Of a stretch of DNA of 49,078 bases, positions 157-47,100 are shown one piece after another. How positions within the stretch are numbered: position 1 is the stretch's first letter; each line of letters begins with the position of its first letter. Source of the stretch: a virus (Duplodnaviria > Caudoviricetes); the IMG/VR virus record IMGVR_UViG_3300033569_000026, positions 1 through 49,078 of that record; one strand, given 5' to 3'. A program made the translations under genes and the position numbers. The notes under the pieces were generated by a model that saw only the letters and a list, made by a program, of their open reading frames with translations, ran no database searches and was not told where the DNA came from.

Positions 157-2235
157 ATGCCAGGCATCGACGAAACACTACAGCCGCCGCCGGGGACAAC
201 GCTCTCGTTCGATGAGGACCCGCCCGCGCCGAGTCCTGTCCTTCCCCCAATCCTTAGCACCCCAGGTGAGCATCCTGCGGCCAACATTCCTTTTCCCGGA
301 GAGCAACAGACTCCTCCGGCGGTGCAGCCCGGACAAGCGGTCAAGCAGAGCACTTCCGCCAACGGGTCGTATCGCGGTGTTACTCAGCAGGGACTGGCGG
401 TCACGTCTTCTCTTAATAAGAAGGCGGATCAGGCAGCCCTCTCCGACGTTGCGCAGTTCGCACCGCAGTTCGCACAAGAGAGAGCTGACTACGAGCGCGT
501 TGCACAAGAGAGACGCCAGGCCAATCAATTAGAGCTCGAAGCGCAGAGGCGACACGCAGCCGAAGAGCAGAAGCTCTGGGAGGTACAGCGTGGCTTCATC
601 ACTGAGCAGCACGAGCTTGAAAAGCAAGCTTACGCGCAATCGCAGGTGGTCAAGCAGCAGTACCTTGCGAACTACGAGCACGACCTCATGTCCGCGCGAA
701 TGCTCGCGATGCAAACAGGCGACCCGTACGAGCGTATGTCGGCAGGGCAAGCGGTCGGTCTTATCGCTGCTCACGCGGTGCAGGGCTTCCTGAAGGTCGG
801 TGGTCATAACATCGATGTTGCTGAGCAGACAAATCGTTGGGTCAACCGCGAGATTGCGAAGCATCAGCAGCTCGTGCAGGACACGCAGCAGGCGGCGCAG
901 GGGCAGTTTCACCTGTACCAGCTCGCTCGTCAGAACGCGATGGACGACTACGAAGCCCGCGAGCGCTATCGCGGAATGGTGATGGAGGGGCTTAAGGCGC
1001 AGGTCGGCGCGGAAGCAGCTCGATTCGGGTCACAGATGGCAACTGCAACCGCAGCGCAGAAGGCCGCCGAGATCGATGCGCAGCTCGTAACACTCAAGGC
1101 GAATCTCGGTGAGCGTCAACGTGGTCTCTATTTCGAGGCCCAGAAGATGCGCATCAACCAGGCCGCTGAACAGGCTCGCAACTCGGTGGCGATGTACTCC
1201 GCTCGTACTGGTCGGCTGGAAGAGGAGCGACTTGCAGCGAAACAGAAGGCTGAGCTGGAGAAGACGGAGAAGGGCGAAGAGCTGTTCCCCGTATACGATC
1301 CGTTTGAACCGATCGGCGCAACTACACAACCGAAGTGGGGAATCAGCAAAGACGACAAAGACGCGATGCACAAGTTCCGCGAGAAGGAGACCGCTACACG
1401 CGCTGTTGCAGCTCAGCTCGACAAACTCGAAGCGGCTCGCGCCCGTGCGTACAAAGCGATTGGCGGCGCTCCGATGAGCAGCTTTGTGGCTGACCGAATG
1501 GGTAAAGGCGCAGACGAAATGCGCGAGTACAAACGAGAACACGCCGCCACCGTGATGACCATCCGCAAGGCGAACACGGGCGCTGCGTTTACCAAAGAGG
1601 AGACCGCCGAATACCTGCGGATGCTGCCAGGAGAGACCTTCTGGGAGGCTGGAGACAACGTCACCGCTGTTCCTCAGCTTCGCGACAAAATTCGCACGGA
1701 CTTCCAGGCGGCGGCGGATACGTACTCTACGAAGGGTAAAGGCAACGTCGCTGGTCCAACACGCGCCGCCGAGTACAGCGCGATGATGAGCGAGAACAAC
1801 CCCTCGCAGTCGTACGCGGACAAGTACGTGGAGAGCACCGATAAGCTTGAAAAGGAGAAGCCGCAGGAGGCGACTCGCGTATTCAAGGAGCTGATGGGTC
1901 CCGGCGACTGGTCGAAGGGAACGCAGCCCGCGAAGATGACGGTGGTTGAAGACCTCGCGAAGATCTACCTCAGCCCGGCACAAGCTCGACGCGAGCACGG
2001 TGACGCACTTCCCGCGAATGATGACCTCGTTCGTGCGCAGGCGCGTGAGGCATTGCAGCGGATTGCTGCTGACCCCGATCAGAAGGACGTTTATCTCGCC
2101 GGTTACGCCCAGATTGTTCTCGACAAAGCCAACGAAGACCCGGCAACCCTCGCGGGTTTGCTTGGAATGCGGCAGGTGAGTGTTGAAGAGAGCAGCTGGT
2201 CAATGTCCGGTGCTCCGGTGAATAGTGGGCAGTAA
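157..2235 (+). CDS. Putative internal virion/ejection protein (coiled-coil, 692 aa)
   Basis: Long Ala/Gln/Glu-rich helical ORF after the tail genes; podovirus synteny. Confidence 0.6.
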   Translation: MPGIDETLQPPPGTTLSFDEDPPAPSPVLPPILSTPGEHPAANIPFPGEQQTPPAVQPGQAVKQSTSANGSYRGVTQQGLAVTSSLNKKADQAALSDVAQFAPQFAQERADYERVAQERRQANQLELEAQRRHAAEEQKLWEVQRGFITEQHELEKQAYAQSQVVKQQYLANYEHDLMSARMLAMQTGDPYERMSAGQAVGLIAAHAVQGFLKVGGHNIDVAEQTNRWVNREIAKHQQLVQDTQQAAQGQFHLYQLARQNAMDDYEARERYRGMVMEGLKAQVGAEAARFGSQMATATAAQKAAEIDAQLVTLKANLGERQRGLYFEAQKMRINQAAEQARNSVAMYSARTGRLEEERLAAKQKAELEKTEKGEELFPVYDPFEPIGATTQPKWGISKDDKDAMHKFREKETATRAVAAQLDKLEAARARAYKAIGGAPMSSFVADRMGKGADEMREYKREHAATVMTIRKANTGAAFTKEETAEYLRMLPGETFWEAGDNVTAVPQLRDKIRTDFQAAADTYSTKGKGNVAGPTRAAEYSAMMSENNPSQSYADKYVESTDKLEKEKPQEATRVFKELMGPGDWSKGTQPAKMTVVEDLAKIYLSPAQARREHGDALPANDDLVRAQAREALQRIAADPDQKDVYLAGYAQIVLDKANEDPATLAGLLGMRQVSVEESSWSMSGAPVNSGQ

Positions 2236-4595: not shown

Positions 4596-5387
4596 ATGGC
4601 AATTGGTACTGTAATTTCTAACGGCACGAAGCGTTCTATTCGTCTCCTCGAAGACCAGACCACCGCAAAGGCCGCTCCGTCGGACTCCGAAGATGGTGTT
4701 CCCTGCTACGTGACTCGCGCCGACATGGCGAAGGGCGAAGAGGCTGAAAAGGGCGTGTGCTTTCTCGGACGTGACGCCGGGCAGAGCACGCTTATGATCA
4801 AAGGCCGCGTGTCGGTTCGCGCATCGCTGGACCTCGACGGCGTTACGGTGAACCTCGACACAATTATCGAGACGCTTGCCCCCAACGATGACAGCGTCAC
4901 AATCACTACGGTTCACAGCGCGGGTGCTCCGAACGCCGGTTCGCTGACTCGCGTCGGCAATGCCTTCACGTTCACGTACAAAGGCGGCACCACGACGGTT
5001 GCCAACTTCGAGGCGGCGGTCGCGGCGCTCACGGGTGACGACCAGCTGATTGGCGTCAAGACCGCTGGCACGGGCGGCAACATCCTGGCGGACACGGACG
5101 ATGAGGTTGTGGACGAGCCGATCGAGACGTTCGCAGCGGTCACTATTGTCGCTACCGCTACGCTCTGGGGTTATCTCGCTGAGGCTGACGCCTGGTTTGA
5201 GATTCCGGTAAACGGCGGCACGGTGGGAACGCCGGTCGCTCTCGCTGAGACGAGCACCGACCAAATCAATTTCCAACAGCGCTTCGAGAACCTCGGGCAC
5301 TACGACCGGATCGATATCGAGCTGGCGTCGCCTGCTGCGGGGTCCTCGTTCGACGCCTGGATCGTGTCGGGACGGTACGGCGAGTAA
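4596..5387 (+). CDS. Putative virion structural protein (beta-rich, acidic)
   Basis: 263-aa ORF, Thr/Gly/Asp-rich, at end of structural operon. Confidence 0.45.
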   Translation: MAIGTVISNGTKRSIRLLEDQTTAKAAPSDSEDGVPCYVTRADMAKGEEAEKGVCFLGRDAGQSTLMIKGRVSVRASLDLDGVTVNLDTIIETLAPNDDSVTITTVHSAGAPNAGSLTRVGNAFTFTYKGGTTTVANFEAAVAALTGDDQLIGVKTAGTGGNILADTDDEVVDEPIETFAAVTIVATATLWGYLAEADAWFEIPVNGGTVGTPVALAETSTDQINFQQRFENLGHYDRIDIELASPAAGSSFDAWIVSGRYGE

Positions 5388-5566
5388 TGGACTACGCATC
5401 AATCTTCACAATCGTCGCGGACCTCGGGCTCGGTGCCTCCGCGTTGTGGCTCGCTAGTCGCCTGACGTTCACCGTCCGCAGTCAGGGCCAGGAAATCGTT
5501 AGCATCCGTAGTAAGCAGTCGGAACACGAAAACCGCATTGGGGTGCTAGAGCAGAAAGCAGCTTAA
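5387..5566 (+). CDS. Small membrane protein, putative holin/antiholin (59 aa)
   Basis: MDYASIFTIVADLGLGASALWLASRL...; one TM segment plus coiled tail; TAATG coupling on both sides; not in ORF track. Confidence 0.55.
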   Translation: MDYASIFTIVADLGLGASALWLASRLTFTVRSQGQEIVSIRSKQSEHENRIGVLEQKAA

Positions 5567-6019: not shown

Positions 6020-6648
6020 AAACTGCATTTCTGTTTGCTCTCACTCTCGCTGCTTGCCAGGTTCCCGCCCCCAGTTATGTGAAGCCCGCCGATGCGGCTG
6101 ACGGCACGTTCAAAGTGGAGATTCTCCATAACGGTGAATCGCTCGGGACCGGAACCGCATGGGTGTACGACCGGAACGATTCGCGCTCGCTGCTCGTTAC
6201 CGCCGGCCACGTCTGCGCTGGTGATGCGTACAAACTCATCGACGCGAACGGGGCTGAGATTCCCGCCGTGGAAGTGAAGCGGAGTGGTGATTACGATTTG
6301 TGTCTGCTCGCGACGGACTCTCCGGTTGGGGTTGCGCTTCCCATTGCACCCCGAGATGTAGAACTTTACGAGAGGGTTCAGTATGTCGGGGCTCCCCTCG
6401 GCGTCTACGGGTGTAGCGATCAGTACAGCGGCGAGAAGTGCGGCTATCGGCCCTACTACTCTGGCGTGTACGCGGGCGGCGACCTGATTACTGCTCCAGG
6501 TTACGGCGGCAGCTCGGGCAGCGCGGTTTTCACGCACGAGGGTGTCATTGGCGTTCTCGTCGCTGGTTACCGGCAGTTCCCGCACCTGGTGTTCATCGAG
6601 TCGCGGGCTCACCTGCTCGAATTCCTGGCGGGTCAAACGGCCAAATGA
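6016..6648 (+). CDS. Lipoprotein trypsin-like serine protease
   Basis: Lipobox LAA-C; catalytic motifs TAGH, DYDL, GGSSGSAV. Confidence 0.85.
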   Translation: MKTAFLFALTLAACQVPAPSYVKPADAADGTFKVEILHNGESLGTGTAWVYDRNDSRSLLVTAGHVCAGDAYKLIDANGAEIPAVEVKRSGDYDLCLLATDSPVGVALPIAPRDVELYERVQYVGAPLGVYGCSDQYSGEKCGYRPYYSGVYAGGDLITAPGYGGSSGSAVFTHEGVIGVLVAGYRQFPHLVFIESRAHLLEFLAGQTAK

Positions 6649-8125: not shown

Positions 8126-8262
8126 CAGACCACCTCGATCCAGTCACTCTCGACGTGATACTTATCCCGCTGGCTATACGGGTAGACGTAGAGGCAGCGC
8201 CCGGTGTGGACCTTGATGAAGTAGAAGCTGCCCAGCGCTCGACAGAAGTAATCGAGCGTCAA
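8122..8262 (-). CDS. Hypothetical protein (46 aa)
   Basis: TTG-started ORF overlapping neighbours by 4 nt at both ends. Confidence 0.4.
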   Translation of the reverse strand: MTLDYFCRALGSFYFIKVHTGRCLYVYPYSQRDKYHVESDWIEVVW

Positions 8263-8849
8263 GCGTAGAACATCGGCCGAACAACCTCACACGCTTTGCT
8301 CCAAGCGTATCCGACGCTAATTGCGGCGCGTCGAAGAGAATCGTGACGAGGCGAACAGTCGATGACGAGCATCGGGTTCACCTTCTTTTTGTTGGTAGCG
8401 GGATCAATCATCGTCGGGTCAGTCCAGCTCGGACGCAGAACCATCCCGATGTGGTCCTTCGTCAGTAGCCAATCGCCCGGAGCCGGCTGCTCGTCCTCAC
8501 GAAGCGTACGACAGAACCTCTGGGCGCCGTGTGCGTCAGCAAGGAGCGAGCCGCAGTGGAGCCAATCGCCAGCAGTGCCGACGTATCCCGGTTGCTTCCG
8601 GTCGATGCCTGACGCCCAGAGCACGAAGCCAATGCAGTCAGCAGTAGGAGCCTGACCGCCGAAGGAGTAGCTAGCGCAATGCGGTGCTTCGGGATCAAAC
8701 CCTCCATTGAATCCACCTTCGAGCCGGTAACCGATCGGCATCGGCTGGCCCTTCGGAGCCTTCACCAGCGCAATCATTTGGGAGAGAGCACGCTGAACCG
8801 CTTGGCCCGGCGTCATCTTCAGGATCTTGCCGCGCTTCTTAGCGGCCAT
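8259..8849 (-). CDS. NlpC/P60-CHAP-like cysteine peptidase, probable endolysin
   Basis: DCIGFVLWA (catalytic Cys), PAPGD, DHIGMV (catalytic His), VIDCS. Confidence 0.7.
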   Translation of the reverse strand: MAAKKRGKILKMTPGQAVQRALSQMIALVKAPKGQPMPIGYRLEGGFNGGFDPEAPHCASYSFGGQAPTADCIGFVLWASGIDRKQPGYVGTAGDWLHCGSLLADAHGAQRFCRTLREDEQPAPGDWLLTKDHIGMVLRPSWTDPTMIDPATNKKKVNPMLVIDCSPRHDSLRRAAISVGYAWSKACEVVRPMFYA

Positions 8850-8933
8850 TGAGTCCCTTCGGATACGTCAAGGTTGCGACCGCACCAAAGAGCACCCCTA
8901 AACCGAAGCAGCACAAGCCGTACGCAACGATCA

Positions 8934-9116: not shown

Positions 9117-9517
9117 CCAATCTCCTTGGGCTCGATGCAGCTCTTCAGATTGAGCGGTCGGCGCCAGAATTCGTCTCGTTGGAACAGCAGCAGCTCGATG
9201 TCCTCATCCAGCAACAACCGTTGTGGTAGCTGCGAGAGCAGACCGACGTAAGCGGGCACCGGCATACGGACCGCGTTATCCGCGAATCGTTGGCGATGCT
9301 GCTCGTACGTCTTCAACTCAGCGTCAATCAGCTGGAGCCCGAGCTTTTTCTGTTGGTCCTTCGAGCAGACAGCGAGGCACTTGTCGCCCTTCGCGTTCTC
9401 GCCCATCATCACGTCCCACTCCTTCGGGATAAGGAACGCAACGACTGGCTTCTCAGTGGTAAACGGCGAGGGCAGCACCTCAAACCATTGCCGATTCTTC
9501 GGTGGTACTACTCTCAT
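9110..9517 (-). CDS. Hypothetical protein
   Basis: ATGA-coupled to the polA C-fragment. Confidence 0.6.
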   Translation of the reverse strand: MRVVPPKNRQWFEVLPSPFTTEKPVVAFLIPKEWDVMMGENAKGDKCLAVCSKDQQKKLGLQLIDAELKTYEQHRQRFADNAVRMPVPAYVGLLSQLPQRLLLDEDIELLLFQRDEFWRRPLNLKSCIEPKEIGC

Positions 9518-10431
9518 TTTGCCTCGTAGTAATTGGGTCCGTACCCAATCGATGTCTGGAGCTTGAACAGCAACTCCGTTCCGTTCGCAGTGGCGTTCGT
9601 CATGTGGCGACGCACCAATAGGACTGCCTTCTCGATGTTCCGCAGCGGACCACGCAACACCAACTCATCGTGGACCTGGAGGATGATGCGGAAGCCCAGC
9701 TCAATCAGCTCGCGGCAACGAGTGACAGCGACCATCGCGTTACCGATGATTTCCGCGCCGCTCGCCTGCATCGGGAAATTGAGTGCTCGACGGATCGCCC
9801 GCCGAATCATCCAATCCATCCCCGACTCCATCTCTTCCTTCAGGTCACACCAGCGGCCACCCAACGAATAGATGCCGTGCCATTTGCGCACGAACTGCTC
9901 GACCCATTGCATCCAGCGCCGCATCCCCGGCACTGCATCGAGGAGAGCGTCAACCATCTGCTGAGCGCGGTCCTCGCCAATCATTTTGCCGTCGGGACCA
10001 ATCAACGTTGAGAACCCGTACGCGCCTTTGCCGTAAGCGAGGCCGTACCAGATCTCTTTGATCATGCCGCGCAGCTTTTCGCCGTACGGATGCTTCTTGA
10101 AATCCTCGGTCGGGATTGCGTCGACGCGCTCACCCGCGTACTTGCAGATGACATCGACGCCATCGATCTTGACGGTGCTCGGTACCTTCCACCCGAGCCA
10201 GCGGCCGAACACTTCCCTCGCGTTGTACGAGTGAATGTCGAGACCCTTACCGCCCTGCTCCGGCTTCGCCTGATCGGCGTACATCTGAATCAGCTGGTTG
10301 TCGCCAAACAGCCGTTTGCAGAGGTCGCCTTGGATTCCGACTTCCAGCGAGGAGTAGTCGGCGACGAGAAGAGTGGGTGTCTCGCCCTTTAATCGGTCTT
10401 CAAAGTAATTAGGCGGTAGGTTCTGGCTCAT
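9514..10431 (-). CDS. polA: DNA polymerase A, C-terminal catalytic fragment (motifs A, B, C)
   Basis: ADYSSLE (A), RGMIKEIWYGLAYG (B), NFPMQASGA, QVHDEL (C); own GGAGGTGA RBS. Confidence 0.92.
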   Translation of the reverse strand: MSQNLPPNYFEDRLKGETPTLLVADYSSLEVGIQGDLCKRLFGDNQLIQMYADQAKPEQGGKGLDIHSYNAREVFGRWLGWKVPSTVKIDGVDVICKYAGERVDAIPTEDFKKHPYGEKLRGMIKEIWYGLAYGKGAYGFSTLIGPDGKMIGEDRAQQMVDALLDAVPGMRRWMQWVEQFVRKWHGIYSLGGRWCDLKEEMESGMDWMIRRAIRRALNFPMQASGAEIIGNAMVAVTRCRELIELGFRIILQVHDELVLRGPLRNIEKAVLLVRRHMTNATANGTELLFKLQTSIGYGPNYYEAK

Positions 10432-10447
10432 TCACCTCCATGGCAAT

Positions 10448-10918
10448 TCAGCGCTTCCATTTGCCTTGTCCCGGAAGCTCAACGCCTTCGGAGCGCAGCA
10501 CACGCCGAATCGTATGACGCTCGACGTTGAACAACTCGGCTAGCCTCTTCATGCGGTACCCTGCGGCGTAGGCACGCACAATCGCAGCTCGATTTTGCGC
10601 ACTCGTTACACCTCGGCGATTTCGCGCCTGCTCTTCCTTAGTCGCCCATCTACAATTACCTGGTGAGTAATTCTTCGACGGATTCTTGCGATCGAGCGTC
10701 ATCCCCTCGGGACGTTCACCCATGTCCGCAAGGAAGTTCGCAAACGACTTCAACCAGCGACGACACACGGTAATCCCAACGGCGCCGTAGCGTTCGTAAC
10801 TGGCGGCGCGAACGTCGTAACAACGGCGCTTCATCTGCCGCCAACTACGATACGTCGAAGTCAATCCCGCTGTGCGCGTCGCATGCCCGTGCTTTAGCTG
10901 GCCGCCCGGAGATCGCAA
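10448..10918 (-). CDS. Free-standing HNH endonuclease with C-terminal HTH
   Basis: YRSW..MKRRC, YGAVGITVC.RW, F..F.ADMGERP, TLDR.NP..NYSPGNCRWAT..EQ.RN. Confidence 0.9.
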   Translation of the reverse strand: MRSPGGQLKHGHATRTAGLTSTYRSWRQMKRRCYDVRAASYERYGAVGITVCRRWLKSFANFLADMGERPEGMTLDRKNPSKNYSPGNCRWATKEEQARNRRGVTSAQNRAAIVRAYAAGYRMKRLAELFNVERHTIRRVLRSEGVELPGQGKWKR

Positions 10919-12411
10919 GCGACCACCGCCTTTCGCACCTGATACAGATCCAACTCTTCTTTGGTCGGCAACTGCTGCATTTCCATCGTCCCCTTGATAC
11001 CCAATCGCCCCGTCACAGCGCCGTTTCGATCGTCCGCATCACCAGCCGGCCCACAAATGACATTGATCCAGCCCCCGGAGTTGGCGAGCTTTCGCATGTA
11101 TTTAAGTCCAGCTCGTACCTTCTTCAGATGAAGGAGGTGATCGATCATCTGCTTCGATTGCGGGCAGTTCTTCGCGACCCACTTGAGCGCCGTGCTGTCC
11201 AACTTGATCTCATCGTTCTTCACGCGGCCCTTCTTCCAGATGGGACTACGCGGGAATTCGAGACCATCGAACAGCTCACCCAATTGTTTGGGACTCGACC
11301 AGACCGCATCAACCTCCTCGCGACGATGCGGCCCGTACTCCAGCGCGCCGTTAATCACGAACCACTTGTGCAGCCACGCAAGCTCCTTCTCTTCGTCGGC
11401 GCTCGCCCGCTCCACCATTGATTGTGAGTAACCGACATCGATCGGGAAGCCTTCGCGCTCCATGAGTACAACGCAATCCTCGACGGACTGGTTGAATTCG
11501 GGACGCCCCCGTGACTCTCCCGGTCCAGCCCCGGCGTCGCTGTACGGGTACGGCGCGGGGTCTCGCTCCTTCTGCGCCAGCTCCTCGCACTCCAGCGCCG
11601 CTATCGCGTCCTCAGCTGCATATCGAACCAGCAGCTCCCAGCGTTTATGGCCCGGTAAGATCGACTCAAGGGGGTGCTGAAACTTCTCATCCTTCAGCTT
11701 CACCTCCTCTACCGTCTCCTTCACCCGCGTCTTGATGTGCAGCCGCTCGACCACTTCCAGTAGTTTGGCGTTGTCCATCCCGAACACCTCGACCTGCTCC
11801 GGTTTTCGTTTCCGGCAGCCATCAACCCCGCAGGAACAAGCACCCCTCTCTACAATCTTCTGTTTGCGAATTTCAATTTGGCGGGTATCGGCTACCACGT
11901 CTTTGAATTCCGCAATCGGGGGGCGCCGTAGCTTTACGAGCATCAGGTTCTTCAACCCGAAGCCGCCTTGCGTGACGAGCCACGGCCACTTCCAGCGCGC
12001 GTACCCGAGAGTGTTGAACGCTCCCCGCAGCTTCACGCCGTGGTTGTGGAATGTGTGGTCATCCACTGGTTGATTGTGGATGTCCTTCTGGATCGACGGG
12101 TCTTCTAGAACAGCTCGGAGCGAAGGATGGAGCAGAGCTGCCATAGGCAGAACCCAACCAACAGCACAATGAAAGCCCAGTGCGGATCTCTTCCGCGTTC
12201 GCACTGCAATGCTCCACACATGTACTCGGGCTCGACCGACACAGGACTCTTTCCGTACGTCCAATCCGTAGAATTCCGAGTCCAGGCCACACACTCCGGC
12301 AGCTCGCACGACTTCCGCGAGAACATCCCAAGCAGCCGGGTCGTCCAGGTATGTCTCGTCGAGATAGCCGAATGGATCGAGTGCCCGTACATCAACCGGC
12401 CCGGCGGACAT
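10894..12411 (-). CDS. polA: DNA polymerase A, N-terminal fragment (3'-5' exonuclease plus thumb)
   Basis: ExoI GLDSEF, ExoII HNQPVD, ExoIII YAAED, MEREGFPID, SPKQL, TGRL..QQLP..VRKAVVA; ends just before motif A. Confidence 0.88.
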   Translation of the reverse strand: MSAGPVDVRALDPFGYLDETYLDDPAAWDVLAEVVRAAGVCGLDSEFYGLDVRKESCVGRARVHVWSIAVRTRKRSALGFHCAVGWVLPMAALLHPSLRAVLEDPSIQKDIHNQPVDDHTFHNHGVKLRGAFNTLGYARWKWPWLVTQGGFGLKNLMLVKLRRPPIAEFKDVVADTRQIEIRKQKIVERGACSCGVDGCRKRKPEQVEVFGMDNAKLLEVVERLHIKTRVKETVEEVKLKDEKFQHPLESILPGHKRWELLVRYAAEDAIAALECEELAQKERDPAPYPYSDAGAGPGESRGRPEFNQSVEDCVVLMEREGFPIDVGYSQSMVERASADEEKELAWLHKWFVINGALEYGPHRREEVDAVWSSPKQLGELFDGLEFPRSPIWKKGRVKNDEIKLDSTALKWVAKNCPQSKQMIDHLLHLKKVRAGLKYMRKLANSGGWINVICGPAGDADDRNGAVTGRLGIKGTMEMQQLPTKEELDLYQVRKAVVACDLRAAS

Positions 12412-12700
12412 AACCTTTAGGGTCGAAGATCTGTACCCACCCGTCGCGATCGTTGCCGACCTCGATGAAGTAGGCGCGATCAGCCCAATGAGTTGCGAGG
12501 CTCTTCTCGATGGCGTGCGCCGAGTCCTTCCAGCGGCCGGGCAGGATGTTGGTCGTTGCAACCTTCATCCTCGTCTTCACGAGCGTCCGCAGCTTGCCTA
12601 GATCGTCGTCGGCCCGCAGCTCCAAGCCAGCGATGTACTCGACACCTTCACGGATCTGCACGACCCTCAGGTAACACTCTCTGGTTGGTGACATCGTCAC
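12392..12700 (-). CDS. Hypothetical protein
   Basis: Coupled ORF with GGAGGTGA start context. Confidence 0.55.
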   Translation of the reverse strand: MTMSPTRECYLRVVQIREGVEYIAGLELRADDDLGKLRTLVKTRMKVATTNILPGRWKDSAHAIEKSLATHWADRAYFIEVGNDRDGWVQIFDPKGYVRRAG

Positions 12701-13741: not shown

Positions 13742-14344
13742 TCACACCAGCGCCGGGAAATACTTCCGGCAGGCTTCGAGGTAGGCATCTTCGGCTTCGT
13801 CAGCGGGCCACTCCATAAAGTCGCCCGTGTTCCAGTAGTCGAATGGCTCCAGCGCCCCCTTGTAGTCGTCGGACTGCTCGCCGTGGCGACCGTTGAAGAG
13901 CTGCTCTCGTTCCGTCAGCCACATCCGGTAATCCAGCTCCTTCACGAGAGGGTCGCCGATGAACGTCAGGTCAAAGAACTTCTCCATGGCCAGCTGCATC
14001 GCGTCTTCAACCCGCTTGTAGTCGGGCAAAAGTGATTTGAGCGGGCTGCTCACGTCACCGACGAACGCCTCATCAGCGTCGTGGATGAGCATGCGTGCCG
14101 GCAGCAGAGCCATCGAGCCTCTGTGTCCCGGGTAGTGCAGCTCAGCCATCTTCGCGGCAACCACGCAATGCTGCGCAACCGTGTAGCGGCTGGCTCCAAC
14201 GTAACGATTGATGCCCGCCAGGTTTCGAGCGATGTCTTCAATCGTGAAGTCTTCGGGACGTGGATCGCCGATAAAGACTTTGTTCCCGTAAAACGTCTTG
14301 ATGTACGGCCCTCGATTGCCCGAGGCCCAGCGGTGCTCCTCCAT
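13742..14344 (-). CDS. HD-domain phosphohydrolase (YfbR/YfdR-like deoxynucleotidase)
   Basis: IEDIA..L..INRY.G, YTVAQH, LIHDADEAFVGD..SPLK. Confidence 0.85.
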   Translation of the reverse strand: MEEHRWASGNRGPYIKTFYGNKVFIGDPRPEDFTIEDIARNLAGINRYVGASRYTVAQHCVVAAKMAELHYPGHRGSMALLPARMLIHDADEAFVGDVSSPLKSLLPDYKRVEDAMQLAMEKFFDLTFIGDPLVKELDYRMWLTEREQLFNGRHGEQSDDYKGALEPFDYWNTGDFMEWPADEAEDAYLEACRKYFPALV

Positions 14345-16594: not shown

Positions 16595-17521
16595 CTATTC
16601 CTTCTCGTTCAAATCGAAGAAGCGAGCGGTTTTGAGATCGATGCCGACACGAATCCGACCCTCAGCACCCCAATTCCGCTTCGGGAAGTCGAATTCCATG
16701 ATGTCGTCCTTCACGTCTCCGTGACCCAATCGTTTGTAGTGACGACCGGGCCGGCACATACCGCCCAGCTCCTTCGCATTGCGTCCTGCGTCGGTACACC
16801 ACGCAAGATCCTCGGCGTCGTAGATGCGGAATCCGTCGATGTCAGGCTTCGCCTTCGGGTCAGTCGCGAACCGTTTGGACCGTTGAGCTATCTCAAGTCC
16901 TCGCTTCGTGACTTCACCCTTCAGCTGTGCCAATGCGACGCCAGCACGATTTCTCTGCTGGCAAAGCTTCGTCCAGCCCCACATGAATTCCGACACCTCG
17001 CGCTCACGACCGTTACGACCATGAGGGAGGGCGCTCAGGTAATCGAAAACATCGAGGTCTGACTCGTGCTCTGCGAATAGTCCAAGCGCTTCCTCCCCCG
17101 TGCGAACCCCGTCGAAATACTCGACACGATCCGCCCATTCCTCAGCCTCTTCTAGTGCGTCGGCAATCCTGATGATGTCGTCATCTTCTAGATCGCCAGC
17201 AAGAATGCGCGCTGAGTTGATGTCAGTGCCGCGAGCAAAAACTCTATCCGCTGTGCGGTCTGCCGGGTCTTCGAGGTCAACAAGATTGACTCGATAACCC
17301 TCTGATGCCGCAGCCCATGCGAGATGGAGCTTCCATAACGATTTGCCGCCGCCGGTCTCCGCTGCGTAGAGCGCGATGCTTTTCCGCTTGTGTCCACCGC
17401 GTTTGTCAAACTCTCTCAGTCGAGTCGGGATGAACGATGGTGGCGGTTTCCCCGCTTTGATCGCTGCCCGCTCTTCCTTGATCCCCCGGTAACGATCCCG
17501 GAGAACTTTCGTCAGCTTCAT
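16595..17521 (-). CDS. dnaB: DnaB-like (SF4) helicase, C-terminal domain only
   Basis: FIPT.L.EFD..GG, Walker A AAETGGGKS, VDLED, VFDYL, ALAQL, KRNWG; GGAGGA RBS. Confidence 0.75.
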   Translation of the reverse strand: MKLTKVLRDRYRGIKEERAAIKAGKPPPSFIPTRLREFDKRGGHKRKSIALYAAETGGGKSLWKLHLAWAAASEGYRVNLVDLEDPADRTADRVFARGTDINSARILAGDLEDDDIIRIADALEEAEEWADRVEYFDGVRTGEEALGLFAEHESDLDVFDYLSALPHGRNGREREVSEFMWGWTKLCQQRNRAGVALAQLKGEVTKRGLEIAQRSKRFATDPKAKPDIDGFRIYDAEDLAWCTDAGRNAKELGGMCRPGRHYKRLGHGDVKDDIMEFDFPKRNWGAEGRIRVGIDLKTARFFDLNEKE

Positions 17522-17629: not shown

Positions 17630-18112
17630 TCACAGCTCGGTCAAAAGCGGCTCACTCTCATAGCGGCCAAAGTCGTTTGAGGTACTACTCTCGGTCGGCA
17701 GTGGTTCGCTCTCCGCGTTGTGCAGCAACTTCTCAGCTTGATTCAAAATCGACTGGGCTTTGATGCTGCCCTGCCACTCACGCCCCGCCTGACTCGCCGC
17801 CGTTACGCACTGCTCGTACGTCAGCGCCAGCGCTTTGAGCTTCGCCTGCATTTGGATGTAGACGAGGCCCGCACCGTTCGGCGGAACCACGAGCCGGCGA
17901 TCGAGCACCGAGCGGAAAGCTGCTACAGCCTGATTGACTGTTAGCCCCGTAGATTTCTCCTTGGGGTGCTCTGCCTCTTCCAGCTTGGCTATGACGCTCT
18001 GGGCAGCCGCCACCACGCTCTTCGAGATGCCGATCGGGCAGCTCGCAATCTCCTTGCAGTGATCCAGTATCAGCTCGCGCTCCGGCTTCGTGAAACGGAC
18101 CGCCCGCGCCAT
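17630..18112 (-). CDS. Hypothetical protein upstream of helicase (possible loader/initiator)
   Basis: Position only. Confidence 0.45.
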   Translation of the reverse strand: MARAVRFTKPERELILDHCKEIASCPIGISKSVVAAAQSVIAKLEEAEHPKEKSTGLTVNQAVAAFRSVLDRRLVVPPNGAGLVYIQMQAKLKALALTYEQCVTAASQAGREWQGSIKAQSILNQAEKLLHNAESEPLPTESSTSNDFGRYESEPLLTEL

Positions 18113-19552: not shown

Positions 19553-20378
19553 TAATCACCTTCATGATTCCCGGCATGCAGTACGGCAACGTGCGGTGCC
19601 AGAAGTTGGTCAGCCACTCGGAGACGCCCGGCACCGGCTCACGACACGGACAGCCGGCGCAGTTCGGCAGCTCTTCCGTTCCGTACGGACTCGGCTTAAC
19701 GATTTGCGGATTCGAGAGTGCCCACCGGAGATCCTGCAAGTGCTCTTGGACCTCGAAGCCCGTCACGAGCCCCGCCGTACGTCGCGGCAACGCAGCCAGC
19801 GGATACTTCCCCCACTGCGTAATCGAGACATCGCACTCCCACTCGTCGGGTTTGCCATCCATCAGCCAGGGGACAATCACGTAGCTCAGCAGCTGCTTGT
19901 TGTCCTCTACGCCAACCGGCCACGCTCCCGTCTTCAGGTCATCGACCCACCAGCGACCCCGCCGCTTGCCCAACCAATCGATCGTGCCGGTGACCCAGCG
20001 AGACGGCTCAAACCGCGCCTGCTTCTTCCACTCATCAGCACCCCCTCGTTCGCCGTCATAGGAGACCAACTCAAGTGTGAAAGGAGAGTAAGCAAACGTG
20101 ACCTCGTGCCGTCCCTGATCCTCCGGCCAATACTCAGCCCGTAGATCGTCGAGACCTGACAGCCCCAGCTTCTTGTTCAGCAGGCGAACAAACTCATCCT
20201 GCTTCTCAGTCAGCGGCGACGGAAAGCACCCGGCCCAGTGCCCGACCTCTTTCCAGTGATGACAGAGCGTTCCAAATTGATTGGCGTCGTCCGTCTTCTC
20301 TCGACGAGGGAGGATGTGCTGCGGCAGTACGAGGCTAGCGGGACACTCGATTACGCGGTCACTACTGCTCGCCCGCAG
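19524..20378 (-). CDS. PD-(D/E)xK Cas4/DUF2800-like exonuclease (probable CTG start)
   Basis: Frame open upstream of 20069: LRASSSDRVIECPAS...GTLCHHW...HEVTF, then GTIDW, VDDLKTG, QLLSY, CAGCPC. Confidence 0.75.
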   Translation of the reverse strand: MRASSSDRVIECPASLVLPQHILPRREKTDDANQFGTLCHHWKEVGHWAGCFPSPLTEKQDEFVRLLNKKLGLSGLDDLRAEYWPEDQGRHEVTFAYSPFTLELVSYDGERGGADEWKKQARFEPSRWVTGTIDWLGKRRGRWWVDDLKTGAWPVGVEDNKQLLSYVIVPWLMDGKPDEWECDVSITQWGKYPLAALPRRTAGLVTGFEVQEHLQDLRWALSNPQIVKPSPYGTEELPNCAGCPCREPVPGVSEWLTNFWHRTLPYCMPGIMKVINGDRVQVSR

Positions 20379-20659: not shown

Positions 20660-21436
20660 TTACTGCTGCTCTTCAGCGAGAAAAGCCTCGCGACGAGCTA
20701 GATACGCTGCTTGTACTGGCTTGCTCTTCAGTGCGTTCGCTTCATCGCGCAACGCCTTGAGTGCGTCGAACGTAGGAATCTGACTGATCCGCTCAATCAT
20801 TTGGGCCTCGGCAGACTGACCTTGGGGTGCTGAGCCCTGAGCAGTCGTGTCACCCGTCCCCGGCGGCACGTAACTCGCCTCGGCTCCGTCGTCGTCCGTC
20901 TGCGTGATGCCAGCGACCGCGACCCACATGTACCGGCGTGCGTAGCTGAGCGCCGATCCGCTGGTCTGCGGATTGAGCACCAGCTTGCCGTCCTTGCTGA
21001 GCGTGAACGCTGGCAGCTGCATCATGAACGAGAGCGATTGGCCACTCGAATGCAGCAGGAACCCGTGCATCGAGATGTACGGATTACCGTCGCTCTTCAC
21101 CTCGATTGCACCGGGATACTGGAGCAGCCACAGCCCGTTGCTCAGGAACGATTCGCGGACCGACGTCAGCACGCTGCCAAGGTCTGCGTACTGATTGCGG
21201 AGGTGCGGGTTGGTCGCGTTCTTGTGAGCGTCACGGCTCGCTGCCACCGCCTTGACGTACGCACCAGCCAGTTGATCGAGGCCCGTCGTTCGATTAGCGA
21301 GCTGCTGGCTAATCTGGTTGAAGACCGCTGTGCCGACCTTCTGAACCTCCGCGCGGACGAACGCCTGCACGTCGAAGCCTTGCGTCGGCTCCTTATCTTT
21401 CTCTGGTGTCTTGTCGCTCTTCTTCTCTGCTGCCAT
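20660..21436 (-). CDS. erf: ERF-family ssDNA annealing protein
   Basis: KNA.NPH....YADL, LLHSSGQ, PQ..GSALSYARRY, DDDG. Confidence 0.92.
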   Translation of the reverse strand: MAAEKKSDKTPEKDKEPTQGFDVQAFVRAEVQKVGTAVFNQISQQLANRTTGLDQLAGAYVKAVAASRDAHKNATNPHLRNQYADLGSVLTSVRESFLSNGLWLLQYPGAIEVKSDGNPYISMHGFLLHSSGQSLSFMMQLPAFTLSKDGKLVLNPQTSGSALSYARRYMWVAVAGITQTDDDGAEASYVPPGTGDTTAQGSAPQGQSAEAQMIERISQIPTFDALKALRDEANALKSKPVQAAYLARREAFLAEEQQ

Positions 21437-25689: not shown

Positions 25690-26295
25690 TGGTTAACGGT
25701 TTGGCGCTCTGCTGGCTGCCATACGGGGATTAGCGCCACTGCCCCGCGAAACCTGATATCCCTCTCCTCGCGTGTTCTGCCGGTTTGATCGAGTACCGCC
25801 GCGTACAGCAGCATTGCGACCAGCTCCCTGATAGTCATTCTGCATCTCCTCTCGCGGTGTCGGGTCCAGATACTCAGCCATCTCCAGGTTCTGTTGCGCC
25901 GAGTCGTCGAATCCCGCCCGCTTCATCTCCATCGCATCGCGCCGTAGCTGCTTTGCACGAGTCTTCTTGTTAGTGGATTGGTAGCTATTCCGAAGCTGCA
26001 TACAGCACCCCTCTGTTCAAATTAATTGGGCTAGCTCATCAGTGTCAGCAGCCCATCGCTGACAGACAGTGGTAGCGGCGTCCCTCGATCGGCCGCACGC
26101 ACACCCACCGTTTCGCTAATCGAAGATAGAAGGAATCCCCTCAGCGTATCGGCTAATCGTCATATGGCACCGTCACGTGATAACCACACCCCGTCGGGCA
26201 TTCGGTACGCCTGCCCGCCATCACCTTACCCGCCTTGAGTCCCCACTCATTGCGTCGGTCGTAGTTGTGATGAACGTCAAAACAACGGCAACACT

Positions 26296-26511
26296 TTACT
26301 TTTGGGCCTCTGTAGTCTGACCCTTGGGGTGCTGTGGCTTGGGACTGTCTATCACCACCGTCCCTCTCAGCACCTTGCACCCGTCGCACGGGCACATCGC
26401 TCCGTGGCCTAGACACTGCGCTAGGAGTCGGTCGTACTTCGCGCGGCTTAGCTTTGTTACGAGCTGGTTCACGAGGTTCCTTGGGTCTGGCGGTTGCGGG
26501 TTTGCAGACAC
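26296..26511 (-). CDS. Hypothetical protein
   Basis: Small ORF with H..MCPCDGC. Confidence 0.45.
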   Translation of the reverse strand: MSANPQPPDPRNLVNQLVTKLSRAKYDRLLAQCLGHGAMCPCDGCKVLRGTVVIDSPKPQHPKGQTTEAQK

Positions 26512-31177: not shown

Positions 31178-31206
31178 TTGACACACGAAACGCGCATCTG
31201 TATAAT
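31178..31206 (+). promoter_or_regulatory. Consensus sigma70 promoter
   Basis: TTGACA-17-TATAAT. Confidence 0.9.
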
Positions 31207-31210: not shown

Positions 31211-31357
31211 CCTACCTCCCTTCCTAAGAGCCCTAGCGGCGACTGAGCGGCTTCCTCTTGAATCTGTAGCTCCTGAAACTTTCCCTTGGGGTGCTGAACA
31301 GGATCAGAGTAAAGACTTCAGAGAGGCCAAAAGAGAGGGCTTCCCGAGCAAGGTAGG
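31211..31357 (+). ncRNA. Long hairpin RNA or structured leader
   Basis: Nested pairings CCTACCT/AGGTAGG, GAGCCCT/AGGGCTT, GGCTTCCTCTTGAATCT/AGACTTCAGAGAGGCC, GCTCCTGA/TCAGAGT, starting at predicted +1. Confidence 0.6.
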
Positions 31358-31486: not shown

Positions 31487-31567
31487 ATCTGGTGGCCATG
31501 AGGCCGCACCCCAGGTCAGCCTACAAGTGCCAACAATAATTCAGGAATCCAGCCTGAAACTATATGG

Positions 31568-31596
31568 TTGACATTTGGCTACGGATCGTTTAAGAT
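31568..31596 (+). promoter_or_regulatory. sigma70 promoter of tRNA/ncRNA cluster
   Basis: TTGACA-17-TAAGAT. Confidence 0.8.
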
Positions 31597-31811: not shown

Positions 31812-32078
31812 AGGTCAGGTTGATCTTTCATGTCTGGCGCAGGGGTGCCACCAGATAGCATGACTCGTCACTGACCTCCCTTTTCTCAGTAGACCGCGAG
31901 AAACCCGCTGTCACTTCGGTGGCGCGGGTCGCGGTCGGCGCCTTTTCGTTCACGGCTTGTCCGTGAGCTGCGTCGAGAATAACCGGCAACGGGAACCCTC
32001 GACCGCTATCGGTTACCGGCAGAGCGCTATCGTGTTGACCGAGCGTAGACCAGTTGAGCCTGCCGAACTTTTGAACAC

Positions 32079-39827: not shown

Positions 39828-39876
39828 AGTCCTGCTGGTTCCAAATCATTGGTTTGGAGCTAGCGGGATTTCTTTT
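39828..39876 (+). terminator. Rho-independent terminator after capsid genes
   Basis: AGTCCTGCTGGTTCCAAA...TTTGGAGCTAGCGGGATT followed by TCTTTT. Confidence 0.85.
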
Positions 39877-39898
39877 ATGTACTTCGACACGGAGGGCA

Positions 39899-40672
39899 AT
39901 GGCTTTCTTTACGCTTGAGCAACTGATCGCGCGCGCAAAAACGTACGTGGATGATGACCATAACGACGAGAAGAGCTGGATCAGCGACGAGCGATGGAAG
40001 GATATCGCGAACGTTGAGTACGGCCAGCTTTACAAGCGGTGGATTCGGCAAGGTCTGATTACCCCCGAGCCGACGACGGCTTACATCGTTGAGTCCGACG
40101 GCACCTTACAGATTGACGGGGTGCTAGCGATTGTCGGAGTCGGAAAAGACTTCGGCGACTTCATTCGGCCGCTCACACCCGCGCAGCCATTGATCGGCAA
40201 GCACGCTTTCTGGCGAGGCTCGACGCAGCCGGTGAACCCGTCGGTTACGTGGGCCGCGTTTTCGCAGGGCGATCGAATCGTCGTGAAGCTGGAGCCGGTC
40301 CCAAGCGATTTGGTCGTCACAGACGAGACCAGCAATTACGTTGTTCGCTACATCGCAGCCCCGACGGCAATCGATTACCAACCCGCAGAACCGCTCGAAT
40401 CGGAAGACCTCTACGTCGGTATGTACGATATCCCGTTCGGTGCCGATGAGCGCGTAGTTCTCGGCATGGCCCGCCGCGCCCACCTGAAGGACTCGGTGAA
40501 CAGCACACTGCTGAACGGCCTCATCGCCGAAGCCGACGCGGAGCTGAATTTCACAGCCGCCAGCAAGATCGACGGGATCAAGGTTCGGCGACTTCCTAAA
40601 CGCTCTGCCCTCATGCGCAGCACCCCAAGGGTCAGCATTTGGCCAGAACGATCTGAGTGGATGTACTTCTAA
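39899..40672 (+). CDS. Head-tail adaptor / tail tubular protein A-like
   Basis: GGAGG RBS; TLEQLI.RA...D......ISD.....N start typical of adaptors. Confidence 0.7.
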   Translation: MAFFTLEQLIARAKTYVDDDHNDEKSWISDERWKDIANVEYGQLYKRWIRQGLITPEPTTAYIVESDGTLQIDGVLAIVGVGKDFGDFIRPLTPAQPLIGKHAFWRGSTQPVNPSVTWAAFSQGDRIVVKLEPVPSDLVVTDETSNYVVRYIAAPTAIDYQPAEPLESEDLYVGMYDIPFGADERVVLGMARRAHLKDSVNSTLLNGLIAEADAELNFTAASKIDGIKVRRLPKRSALMRSTPRVSIWPERSEWMYF

Positions 40673-44192: not shown

Positions 44193-47100
44193 ATGGGACA
44201 ACGCCAGCCCGACCAGGACAAAATCATTTGGCAGTCGGTTCCGTTCCCTATCGGCGGGACGGGACTTGACCTCCGAACCCCAACAACTCCGGGCGCGCTG
44301 ACGAAACTCATCAACGCCCGTTTCCGTGATGAGCGCACCGTCGAACGTCGACTCGGCTACAGCAGCATCGAGCTTCAGGACGCCAGCGACTTCGCGAACG
44401 GCACGAACACCCCGGAAGGCTGGCTCTACGGCCACGGGCAGCTGCTCACCGACCTCGGTGACGCACACTTCCCGATTGCTAAGCAGGGCAAGGGCGTCTT
44501 CAAGTACGGCGATACGCACCTCTGCTGGACCGGCGACCGACTTCTAATCGCTCGTGAGGGAACGTCGATCGGCAGCAGCCCTTTTTGGAGTCGCGGAGGT
44601 GGAACGAGCAATCGTGGTATCCCGGCCTACCTACCAGTGCAGACCGACAACGCCCCGCCCGATAAGGTGACCGGCGATTACGTCGAGACCTGCCTCACCG
44701 AGACGCTGCGTGTTGTTCTCGCCTCGACAGATAGCGAAGACCTGATCGCGTGGGTCATCGACCGCGCAACCGGCGCAGTGCTCAACCGTACCGACATCGT
44801 GTCCGGTGGTGATGGGATCTACGAACCGCGCGTCATCAACTCCGGTGACCTTCCCGTCGCGGTGTGGCTCGACGGCACCGAGCTTTTCATCAGTTGGTGG
44901 TCTGGAATCCAATGGAGCACCCCAAGTGTCATTTCTGATGCTGTAACGACTTTTGAGGTTGCAGAAGTATCAGGCGGCTTTGCGTTGGCTTGGCAGACAG
45001 GCGGCGTCGTGAAAGTCGGACGCTACACGCAGCACACGACCGACAACACGCTGTTCGATTTTGGAACCGCGCTGACGCTGCCGAGTGATGCAGCCGGCGC
45101 ACTGGCCTTTGCTGTTGCTCCCAACGATTCGGTTGGGCTCGTCTGGCAGGATGCGGAGGATGTAACGCTTTGGGCGAGCACATTTGGGCCTGACCTCGAA
45201 ACAGACGCACACCTTCAGATCAGCTCGACGGCTGGCCCGTGGGATTCAGGTATCTCCTGCTGCTTCCGCGCAATCGAGGACGAGTACGAGCGGCACAAGC
45301 TCGTTGTTCACGCGGGCAACGGGGCGCTGTACACGCAGCTGTGGGAGCTGGCGCATTCGGACGATGATGTGCTGGAGACTGTGCAGACGGACAAGCGCTA
45401 CCGCACGAAGCTGGCGAGCAAATCGTTTCGCATCGGCGACGAGGTGTTCTGCTGGCTGCAAGCACGCAATAGCGAGACCAATTACCTGGCGGCGGGCGTT
45501 ACGATGCCTCAGGTTTGCGGCATTGCTGACCGTGAAGACGCGGTGTCTCGAATCGTTCGCGATACCGGCGCACCGGGCTATGGCGTGAAGGGGTTGCCGA
45601 TGGTGTACCCCGACCCTCTCGATGAGCACCGCGTTACGTGGATTCGGCCGTTCAACACGACGCGAATTACCACAATCGACGACGAGCGCTCGAAGGTCGC
45701 TGATCTCTACGTACGCGCCGGTAACTGCCGCATCGGTGACATGAACTTTCTGCCGCCGCTGTGCGCAGTGCAGTATGGGGAGAGCGTCTACTTCGCTGGC
45801 TCGCACGTTCGCAACTGGGACGGCATGGAGCTGGGTGACGCGGGCTTCCATGATTACCCGCTCGTCAGCTTCAGTCAGTCGGACGGTGCAGGGGCGCTCA
45901 GTAACGGCGTTTACCAGGTTCGCGCCTACCCGGTGCGCTACAACAAACGTGGCGAGCGATTCCAGGGCTCAGCAATTACCGAGTCGGTAGAGATCACTGG
46001 AGCCAACGATACACTGCTTGTTACGGCGCAAACGGTTCCCGTTACGAACCACGACGATCTGACGTTTGAGATTTGGCGCACCGAAGCGGGTGGCACGACG
46101 TTCTACCTGGACGGTGTTGTCACAAACGATTTGGCGGCGGGCAGCGTCAGCTACACGTGCACACTCAGCGACGCGGCGCTTCGGCTCCGTCCCGCTGATC
46201 CTCATGCGCCCGGTATCGGGATTGCTGCTGAGGTCGAAGAGCTGGGACCTCTCGGCTGTGAAATCTTGGCTGTCTCTGGAGATCGACTTTGGGGTGCTGG
46301 AGGCCAGGTTCCCGGAGGCTTCGTTCAATTCTCGAAGCTCAAGGAGCCGGGCGAGGCGGCGGGTTTTGATCCGCTGGCTGGCTACCAGGAGATTGACATC
46401 CAGGGCGCGCGTATCACCTCGATGATTGGGTACGCCGAATCGATGTTGTTCTTCTCGCTTGGCGGCTTCTATCAGTTGCACGGCGCGGGACCAAACAACT
46501 ACGGCTCGGGCGGCTATTCGACGCCGCAGCTCAATCTTGTCGACGGGGCAGTGACTCATCTCGGAACCGGCATTACGCAAGAGGGTCCGGTGTACTGGGG
46601 AGTTGATGGGCCGCGCCTGATGAGACCCAATAGCGGCGTAGTGAATATCTCCGCGCCAGTTCGGCTCTTGACGAAGACGCTCACGCCCTCCGGTGTGCAA
46701 ATCGATTTTGCTCGTCAGGAAGTCGTGTGGTTCACGGAGGACGGGAACGCGGTTCTGTGGAACTACCAGAACAGCTCTCGATGGGCACAATGGAAGGGGT
46801 TGAAGGTCGCGGGGTGCTGCAACGACGCGCTGATGATGACGAACGGTAGGCTCTTTCAAGAGTCGGCCGAGGCGTACGGCGACGGTGGGGCGCCATTTAC
46901 CTTCGCTGGCGCTACCGGCGAGCTGAACAGCGGCTCGTACGGCGGCGACATGGAAGTGAATCGGGTCGGTGTTGCGGGCGTGTACGAAGGAGAGCACGAG
47001 CTTCGTCTTCGCATCTTCTACAACGGCTCACCGCTTTGGTCGGAGCAGTGGATCTTTGACCCGCGCGATCGAACGTGGCTGACATCCGGCGCTGAGTTGG

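Follow-up and report, generated by a model that had tools for sequence, protein, structure and literature searches.

GGGGTGC(T), an exact word dispersed through the genomes of one uncultured phage clade, as a possible Chi-like signal

Among phage genomes seeded with a short DNA word, those rich in Chi sites come closest to the case described here. The lambdoid phage LLS carries 23 Chi sites (one per 1.86 kb) and phage P1 carries 50 (one per 1.9 kb), Chi being the commonest octamer of both; its polarity can be strong, with 20 against 3 sites in LLS and 32 against 0 among the 32 sites of Pseudomonas phage MD8, and among lambdoid phages a high density of Chi is associated with the absence of a Rec module, all as reported in a 2025 paper (PMC12315714). 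We analyzed a word with comparable statistics, GGGGTGC(T), in the window, as we call the whole stretch of 49,078 bp that makes up the IMG/VR record IMGVR_UViG_3300033569_000026 (Caudoviricetes). Its first 127 bases are identical to its last 127, which makes it a circular assembly of 48,951 unique bases in which the 127-bp terminal repeat is assembly overlap. The enrichment of the word is real, independent of frame, strand and position, limited to the exact word and common to one phage clade, and its statistics match those of Chi in P1. Selection may keep this strictly defined word at high density across the phage and its clade, and we tentatively propose, on the strength of these statistics, that it could be a Chi-like recognition word for a helicase-nuclease of the host.

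Two other kinds of dispersed word are relevant for comparison. Stoperators, the sites of a cognate repressor in mycobacteriophage L5 and cluster A, are found mostly in short gaps between genes. The uptake words of Neisseriaceae and Pasteurellaceae, DNA-uptake sequences (DUS) and uptake signal sequences (USS), are a property of competent host genomes and occur about once per kb, in equal orientation and in all frames, with a sharp core and dialects in the flanks. As reference sets we counted L5 stoperators in NC_001335, using the consensus GGTGGMTGTCAAG with up to two mismatches, and Chi in P1. L5 yielded 31 sites, which are oriented by genome arm (24 plus, 7 minus) and concentrated in the early arm, and 13 of which are degenerate. 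P1 yielded 50 sites, 31 forward and 19 reverse, with the two orientations interleaved.

An exact word enriched in the window and in one phage clade

The extended form of the word, the 13-mer CCTTGGGGTGCTG, occurs exactly at 20820, 26322 and 31284 on the plus strand and at 40618 on the minus strand, and with 12 of 13 positions at 17959 and 46287. A first-pass annotation of the window, made from the letters alone, had listed all of these correctly except the copy at 46287, which it missed. Allowing up to two mismatches, we found ten matches against 1.29 expected, a number reached in none of 100 shuffles. The 8-mer core GGGGTGCT has 17 exact copies, in both orientations and exactly where they had been annotated; none of 100 shuffles reaches 17, and the expectation from composition is 1.24, so that the earlier estimate of about three should be lowered to nearer 1.3 (1.24-1.32). 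Also as annotated, the segments 26317-26334 and 40618-40635 share 18 bp, as an inverted identity.

The enrichment persists when coding constraints are taken into account. In 1000 shuffles that kept the amino-acid sequence and per-gene codon usage and left non-coding DNA fixed, a null of the kind suggested as a check in the first-pass annotation, GGGGTGCT had a mean of 5.3 copies and a maximum of 11, against the 17 observed. The 10-mer TTGGGGTGCT occurs 9 times against 1.2 (maximum 3) and CTTGGGGTGCTG 4 times against 1.0 (maximum 2); in all three cases no shuffle reached the observed count. AGCACCCCAA is the most over-represented 10-mer of the genome, and AGCACCCC ranks fifth among the octamers of the window, first in its relative L136 and second in another, L142.

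We extended the analysis to relatives of the window phage, of which G001 is a complete syntenic genome of 47,636 bp with a capsid protein 64% identical to that of the window. It has 33 copies of GGGGTGCT, 38 of AGGGGTGC and 74 of GGGGTGC, which is its commonest heptamer. In both genomes the enrichment is confined to the exact word. The 8-mer of the window has 17 copies against 1.32 expected, while its 24 one-mismatch neighbors together have 42 against 38.7; for the heptamer in G001 the figures are 74 against 6.66, and 196 against 181 for the neighbors. Chi in the first 50 kb of P1 gives the same picture by the same measure (27 against 2.48; neighbors 48 against 46.7). Density ranges from one site per 2.9 kb (window 8-mer) to one per 0.64 kb (G001 heptamer).

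Both strands carry the heptamer (10 plus and 10 minus in the window, 33 and 41 in G001, 19 and 19 in a further relative, G003), with the orientations interleaved, and we saw neither map polarity nor terminal clustering in these three genomes. Its density along G001 is even, at 3 to 9 per 4 kb, and close pairs or hairpins are not favored there, with three gaps below 35 bp against about four expected from a Poisson estimate. By crude longest-open-reading-frame calls, the 185 heptamers of seven genomes divide into 84 sense, 73 antisense and 28 intergenic sites and occupy all six frame/orientation classes; the 8-mers of the window divide into 7, 7 and 3. Most heptamers lie inside open reading frames (ORFs), 15 of 20 in the window and 65 of 74 in G001, and non-coding DNA, which makes up 4-10% of the sequence, is about twice as dense in sites as coding DNA (28 of the 185).

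Site positions in four shared genes, compared across up to 11 genomes, fall mostly in different alignment columns, and the few that coincide do so where the protein is conserved; the sites therefore appear to turn over like density signals. The intragenic copies encode EHPK, SAPQG/TAPQG or STPRV, as had been annotated together with the view that the signal is in the nucleic acid. Our results bear this view out: the use of all six frame/orientation classes, the lack of polarity and the non-homologous positions place the signal in the DNA, and the codon shuffles together with the use of all frames rule out an amino-acid or codon artifact.

Codon shuffles show that the enrichment extends to several relatives. 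For GGGGTGC, the counts are 74 against 23.8 in G001 and 38 against 16.8 in G003 (reached in 0 of 200 shuffles each), 23 against 12.3 in L138 and 14 against 3.7 in L139; for the octamer, they are 6 against 1.4 in L136 and 8 against 1.5 in L142. The word is not enriched by this test in L132 (10 against 6.7, reached in 19 of 200 shuffles), L133 (3 against 2.8) or G004 (1 against 4.4). G002, with a guanine-cytosine (GC) content of 41%, has three copies and also three of a control word, and L150 has none. A capsid tree of 14 rows groups the enriched genomes in a single clade, with G002, G004 and L150 as the outgroup; L133 falls inside the clade, as sister of the strongly enriched L138 and L139. The base before the core differs by phage, being T in the window, A in G001 and C in G003 and L138, and the T after the core is retained in clade members of lower GC content. 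No comparably sharp word of another sequence was found in the outgroup phages. Among the best 80 of 118 loci from the half of IMG/VR that was scanned, no other contig had more than one match to the 14-mer.

Candidate readers of the word

The likeness to Chi-rich phages is extensive. In both cases a strict, G/T-rich word of 7-8 nucleotides (nt) is among the commonest octamers of its genome, at about 11 to 13 times the expectation and with its neighbors at baseline; it is intragenic, in any frame, at a density (here one per 0.6-2.9 kb) of the same order, and its orientations are interleaved as in P1. These shared statistics suggest that the word may tame a DNA-degrading enzyme of the host: GGGGTGC(T) would be read by a host helicase-nuclease of the RecBCD/AddAB class and would switch it from degrading linear phage DNA to recombination or repair. 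P1 is a headful phage that needs RecBCD. If the genome of the window phage is likewise packaged with its ends falling anywhere (headful, permuted), a lack of polarity would be expected. The context of Escherichia coli Chi tunes its activity, and the flanks in the window show a preference that might do the same, with YGAC-N1-2-YTT ahead of the core and G behind it: of the 17 sites, 9 have TT before the core, 10 have G after it, and 6 have YGAC at a distance of 4-9 nt upstream. Chi-like or priming sites had been among the possibilities raised in the first-pass annotation, and they remain the best-fitting class. Family scans, which covered 66 ORFs against PHROGs and 54 against Pfam and left most ORFs with no family, matched no RecBCD/AddAB inhibitor.

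A Chi-like word is the best-fitting mechanism, but our confidence in it is limited, and several observations weigh against it. LLS and MD8 are strongly polar, in contrast to the window phage, and Chi-rich lambdoids lack a Rec module, whereas the window encodes Erf, SSB and a weak match to a PD-(D/E)XK nuclease. GGGGTGC(T) itself differs from Chi in sequence and is not known as the Chi of any organism, and its extended version of 13-18 bp, confined to the window phage, is longer than any known Chi. Nor does Chi predict that a perfect promoter should be followed closely by a copy, as is the case in the window, in G001 and, with the copy inverted, in G003. No comparable word density was found in six replicons, a tiny sample: E. 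coli K-12 and plasmids of Granulicella, Sinorhizobium, Ralstonia, Rhodococcus and Pseudomonas putida (Acidobacteriota, Alpha-, Beta- and Gammaproteobacteria, Actinomycetota). Further, the enriched genomes are restricted to one clade, a pattern equally expected of a reader encoded by the phages and of a host group common to them. Finally, G001 (L125-L127) contains the Pseudomonas Chi octamer GCTGGCGC 12 times, always on the minus strand, from 14177 to 46565, with 4 copies antisense to plus-strand genes; the codon-shuffle null is 3.6/5.5 and none of 300 shuffles reaches 12, in a post-hoc test among several words. If GCTGGCGC is the real Chi of G001, GGGGTGC has another role there; its bias is also a possible hint to the host of G001.

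Published uses of the word did not turn up. Full-text searches for GGGGTGCT, AGCACCCC, TTGGGGTGCT and AGCACCCCAA found nothing, and the papers listed for GGGGTGC, GCACCCC, GGGGTG and CACCCC concern, judging by titles and the beginnings of abstracts, eukaryotic or otherwise unrelated contexts; a Chi-motif survey with 75 over-represented octamers of Proteobacteria (PMC8022716) may be relevant here. The Chi of E. coli, GCTGGTGG, is not notable in any of the 14 genomes and loci examined.

A phage-encoded, sequence-specific DNA-binding protein, acting as global regulator, roadblock repressor or genome marker, is an unlikely reader, but one that several features suit. The clade pattern, with an outgroup that has no enriched word and an inner member, L133, that would have lost it, is what such a protein would leave behind, and the variation of the preceding base (T, A or C) by phage is as expected of co-evolving sites. 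The extended preference in the window, with its four exact 13-mers and one 18-bp pair, would mark high-affinity sites. The higher site density in non-coding DNA agrees with this, as does the copy after the perfect early promoter, which was kept in the window and G001 while the leader around it diverged. That copy is the sole block conserved between the two leaders besides the promoter; the association of promoter and word is marginal (Fisher combination over three genomes about 0.04), and the G003 copy is in the opposite sense.

The closest model for such a binder would be the stoperators, to which the first-pass annotation had likened the word. As with those of L5 and cluster A, a temperate phage genome carries tens of dispersed copies of a word that is asymmetric and about 13 bp long. 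Of the five intragenic window copies that differ from the 13-mer at no more than one position, four run against transcription, as in L5, a proportion that is not significant. The analogy is otherwise not supported. L5 stoperators are oriented by arm and 13 of 31 are degenerate, whereas the core in the window is all-or-none, evenly spread and without orientation relative to transcription; its one-mismatch variants are not enriched, and its sites lie mostly inside genes, at positions that are not conserved, and not mainly in intergenic gaps. The 74 sites in 47.5 kb of G001 are far above any known phage regulator.

Nor was a cognate protein found, the only DNA-binding or repressor match in the family scans being the helix-turn-helix domain of a ParB-like protein. 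This protein and a zinc finger had been put forward as binders, but a tblastn search of 11 relatives, among them G001 with its 74 sites, found no match to the ParB-like gene. Among the same relatives, the Zn-ribbon ORF (21494-21811, plus strand) has a match of 28 residues in G001 only; the minus-strand ORF 21449-21742 is not a zinc finger. The Zn-ribbon protein has three CxxC pairs and is encoded against the surrounding minus-strand genes. G001 has a 42-codon ORF matching its C-terminal part and a different Zn-ribbon ORF on the other strand.

The uniform spacing of the word on both strands, about one per 1.2-5 kb per strand, and its exactness and independence of genes also recall lagging-strand priming sites, where it would be the template word of an unrecognized phage primase or an annealing site for primer RNA from a leader carrying GGGGUGCUG. 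T7 primase prefers the G-rich template words GGGTC/TGGTC, and a word of that type would likewise be rich in G and be required about every kilobase on either strand. In the window no primase family was matched, and the DnaB-like helicase is an ORF of 316 amino acids with the DnaB C-terminal domain; a copy of the word follows the strongest promoter, within the non-coding region of lowest GC content, a possible place for an origin. However, known primases read 3 nt and need no enrichment, and we know of no enrichment of primase words in phage genomes. Further, polymerase and helicase are shared by the outgroup phages, in which the word is missing, and in G003 the promoter-proximal copy is in the opposite sense. 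We consider priming improbable as the role of the word. There is a slightly slimmer chance that a priming system replaces the conventional primase: Okazaki fragments would start at the exact 7-8-nt word, either by the action of a primase whose specificity has no precedent or from a primer RNA released by cutting the strongly transcribed GGGGUGCUG leader. The word would then have been placed by selection at intervals of about a kilobase on each strand.

The equal orientation, uniform spread, use of all frames, sharp core and flanking-base dialects are equally those of DUS/USS, so that the word might be a genome-wide host word of this other kind, accumulated in a temperate phage, here one with an integrase, by recombination or drive involving a host that favors DNA with the word. 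DUS/USS are, however, host-genome words of 9-12 nt and to our knowledge confined to two bacterial families, and scans of species genomes with two capsid or two integrase peptide patterns revealed no prophages of the clade. We give this origin little probability.

A fourth alternative starts from the leader of the promoter at 31178, which matches all 12 consensus positions. The leader RNA carries CCCUUGGGGUGCUG and might pair with CAGCACCCCAAGG in five phage mRNAs to control them. Its complementarity is perfect over 13-14 nt at 20820, 26322 and 40618 and covers 12 or 11 of 13 positions at 17959 and 44915, all five being in mRNA sense, and the leader of G001 has GGGGTGCTG in the same sense. According to the first-pass annotation, all strong intragenic copies read CAGCACCCCAAGG in the mRNA; this holds for the five sites just named but not for those at 46287, 16663 and 5536, so that three of eight extended intragenic sites share the sense of the leader. 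Against a small RNA, the 8-mer is equally frequent in the leader's own sense, both in the window and over the seven genomes (84 against 73), the targets lie deep in coding regions and not at starts, the G003 copy follows its promoter in the opposite sense, and the extended copies of G001 are of mixed sense. The hairpin RNA annotated at 31211 finds no support, as the stretch folds no better than shuffles (z 0.63). Rfam has no match in 31100-32150. The position of the 31284 copy, about 75 nt into the predicted transcript and complementary in sense to the five intragenic copies, leaves the idea weakened but standing; we consider it very improbable.

A phage enzyme that modifies or nicks DNA at specific sequences would also have exact target sites, and T5-like and LUZ24-like phages, which have localized nicks, offer a model. 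The convergent gene blocks of the window, its split DNA polymerase A, HNH endonuclease, Dam-family methylase and several nucleotide-metabolism genes would suit such an enzyme. Yet known nick motifs lie on one strand only, whereas the word is equally frequent on both; G003 contains the word but gives no tblastn match to the methylase or the HNH gene; and selection would have no reason to favor a high density of modification sites. The probability of this explanation is small.

Sites, gene layout and neighboring elements

The copies of the word in the window are listed in Table 1 together with the promoter upstream of the leader copy. We rejected two further interpretations of individual copies. 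A Shine-Dalgarno function does not fit, as genes of the window use GGAG, GAGG or GGTGA before their starts and few copies precede a start, the one at 26004 being the sole clear case. A likeness of CAGCACCCCA to tRNA 3' ends, seen by eye, was dropped because the A-GGGGTGC of G001 lacks the TGG.

Table 1. Copies of the word in the window and the promoter preceding the leader copy.
Feature	Coordinates	Strand	Context
GGGGTGCT copy	256..263	-	In tail-region ORF wrapping from 48082 to 2235; antisense to gene
ATTGGGGTGCTA copy	5540..5547	+	Near end of small ORF 5387-5566, where plus and minus gene blocks meet
Heptamer-only copy, GGGGTGC without following T	6346..6352	-	
GGGGTGCT copy	8891..8898	-	Intergenic, 42 nt upstream of ORF 8259-8849 (-)
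GGGGTGCT copy	11671..11678	+	Gene for N-terminal DNA polymerase A fragment (10894-12561, -); antisense
GGGGTGCT copy	11839..11846	-	Gene for N-terminal DNA polymerase A fragment (10894-12561, -); sense
AATTGGGGTGCTG (11/13)	16663..16675	-	DnaB-like helicase gene, near 3' end; sense
CCTTGGGGTGCTC (12/13)	17959..17971	+	ORF 17630-18112 (-); mRNA reads GAGCACCCCAAGG (EHPK)
GGGGTGCT copy	20037..20044	-	Near start of PD-(D/E)XK nuclease ORF 19524-20069 (-); GATG immediately after
Exact 13-mer	20820..20832	+	Erf recombinase gene (20660-21436, -); mRNA reads CAGCACCCCAAGG (SAPQG)
GGGGTGCT copy	26004..26011	-	Ribosome-binding position, 2 nt before ATG of ORF 25693-26001 (-); just downstream of hammerhead ribozyme match
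CTGACCCTTGGGGTGCTG, 18-bp copy	26317..26334	+	ORF 26153-26575 (-)
TTGACA-17-TATAAT promoter, 12/12 sigma-70 consensus	31178..31206	+	Upstream of 31283 copy; same arrangement in G001
CCCTTGGGGTGCTG copy	31283..31296	+	Large non-coding region, ~75 nt downstream of predicted transcript start from perfect promoter
Heptamer-only copy	31506..31512	-	Non-coding region
Heptamer-only copy CAGGGGTGCC	31842..31848	+	Just after tRNA-like element; two CAGGGGTGCAG copies at matching place in G001
GGGGTGCT copy	40118..40125	+	ORF 39854-40672 (+); sense
18-bp copy, inverted relative to 26317-26334	40618..40635	-	42 nt before stop of ORF 39854-40672 (+)
ACTTGGGGTGCTC (11/13)	44915..44927	-	1042-amino-acid structural ORF 44193-47321 (+); antisense
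CTTTGGGGTGCTG (12/13)	46287..46299	+	Structural ORF 44193-47321 (+); sense; contradicts single sense of strong copies
GGGGTGCT copy	46811..46818	+	Structural ORF 44193-47321 (+); word also at aligned codon position in G001

The genes of the window form two convergent blocks. The plus-strand block runs from about 32.1 kb through the window end to 5.6 kb and encodes the large terminase, the capsid protein and long tail/virion proteins. Its last ORF crosses the assembly junction in frame, 48082-49078 being joined to 1-2235 and thereby to ORF 157-2235, so that there is one protein of about 1035 amino acids and not two. The minus-strand block, from 31.7 kb down to 5.6 kb, encodes a Dam-family methylase, the split DNA polymerase A with a free-standing HNH endonuclease gene, an exonuclease subunit, enzymes of nucleotide metabolism, the DnaB-like helicase, SSB, the weak PD-(D/E)XK nuclease match, Erf, a tyrosine integrase and the ParB-like protein. 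The polymerase occupies two ORFs in 9514-12561, with the HNH gene (10448-10918) between them; in G001 the HNH homolog lies elsewhere and the two polymerase matches are almost end to end (20467-22014 and 19618-20454). The nucleotide-metabolism cluster (13742-15989, minus strand) comprises a dNMP phosphatase, a nucleoside deoxyribosyltransferase, a MazG-like protein and the N-domain of a dGTP/dATP diphosphohydrolase-like protein, which hints that the nucleotide pool may be non-standard or a base modified.

The promoter at 31178-31206 is one of two perfect or near-perfect sigma-70 promoters on the plus strand, the other lying at 31568-31596; both are in a non-coding region of 1.4 kb that is the lowest-GC part of the genome, and L126 has two at 17220-17248 and 17669-17698. 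A hydrophobic ORF of 36 codons (about 31367-31477) follows the first. By eye, we also recognized a tRNA-like element at about 31738-31810 (plus strand) and at about 17796-17872 in G001 (= L126). Its CCA end is encoded, and its loop, CTCATTA, contains the anticodon CAT. Its anticodon and T stems differ between the two genomes by paired changes, it is absent from the Rfam and ARAGORN reports, and it follows a strong promoter in the window, G001 and G003.

Two elements of the minus strand gave matches in Rfam. A Hammerhead_II ribozyme match at 26025-26118 (38.9 bits against a gathering score of 37) sits between ORF 26153-26575 and ORF 25693-26001, about 470 bp from the integrase gene. A tRNA match at 21948-22028, just above threshold (30.1 bits against 29), has good acceptor and T arms and a nearly deleted anticodon loop, and ARAGORN reports no tRNA; a tRNA remnant of the attP type is conceivable, as is a tRNA-like element. 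The window further contains a second, dispersed family of over-represented words, AAA[TC][CG][GA]TT, often followed by GGG (for example at 831, 16728, 27364, 29353, 34937 and 47305). Its members AAATCGTT and AAACGATT have 11 and 10 copies, with about 1.2 expected for each, and the palindrome CCATATGG is found at four places.

Searches for relatives place the phage in an uncultured group. Capsid, terminase and the N-terminal part of the polymerase had no tblastn match in 50,697 deposited phage records, and neither megablast nor tblastn found cultured relatives of a 12-kb stretch or of these three proteins. The C-terminal polymerase part had tblastn matches at only 26-29% identity, spread over many hosts. 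Among metagenome-derived proteins, the capsid protein has 151 relatives, many on contigs of 47-51 kb. The integrase gave one weak match to plasmids and SSB mixed phyla in a protein atlas, and a sequence search of PDB with the terminase and ORF 17630-18112 gave no match.

Implications for the phage clade

Should the word prove Chi-like, it would be the first signal of the Chi type to be deduced from the genomes of an uncultured phage clade, and it would provide a handle for host finding, as any genome rich in GGGGTGC(T) would be a candidate. The strategy of Chi-rich phages would then extend beyond enterobacterial and Pseudomonas lambdoids and P1, to a phage with its own Erf recombinase. If the word is not Chi-like, a phage-borne factor that recognizes one exact heptamer, in up to 74 copies per genome, would represent a new kind of genome-wide phage signal. 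Under either reading, the word is a simple, testable marker of self for the clade.

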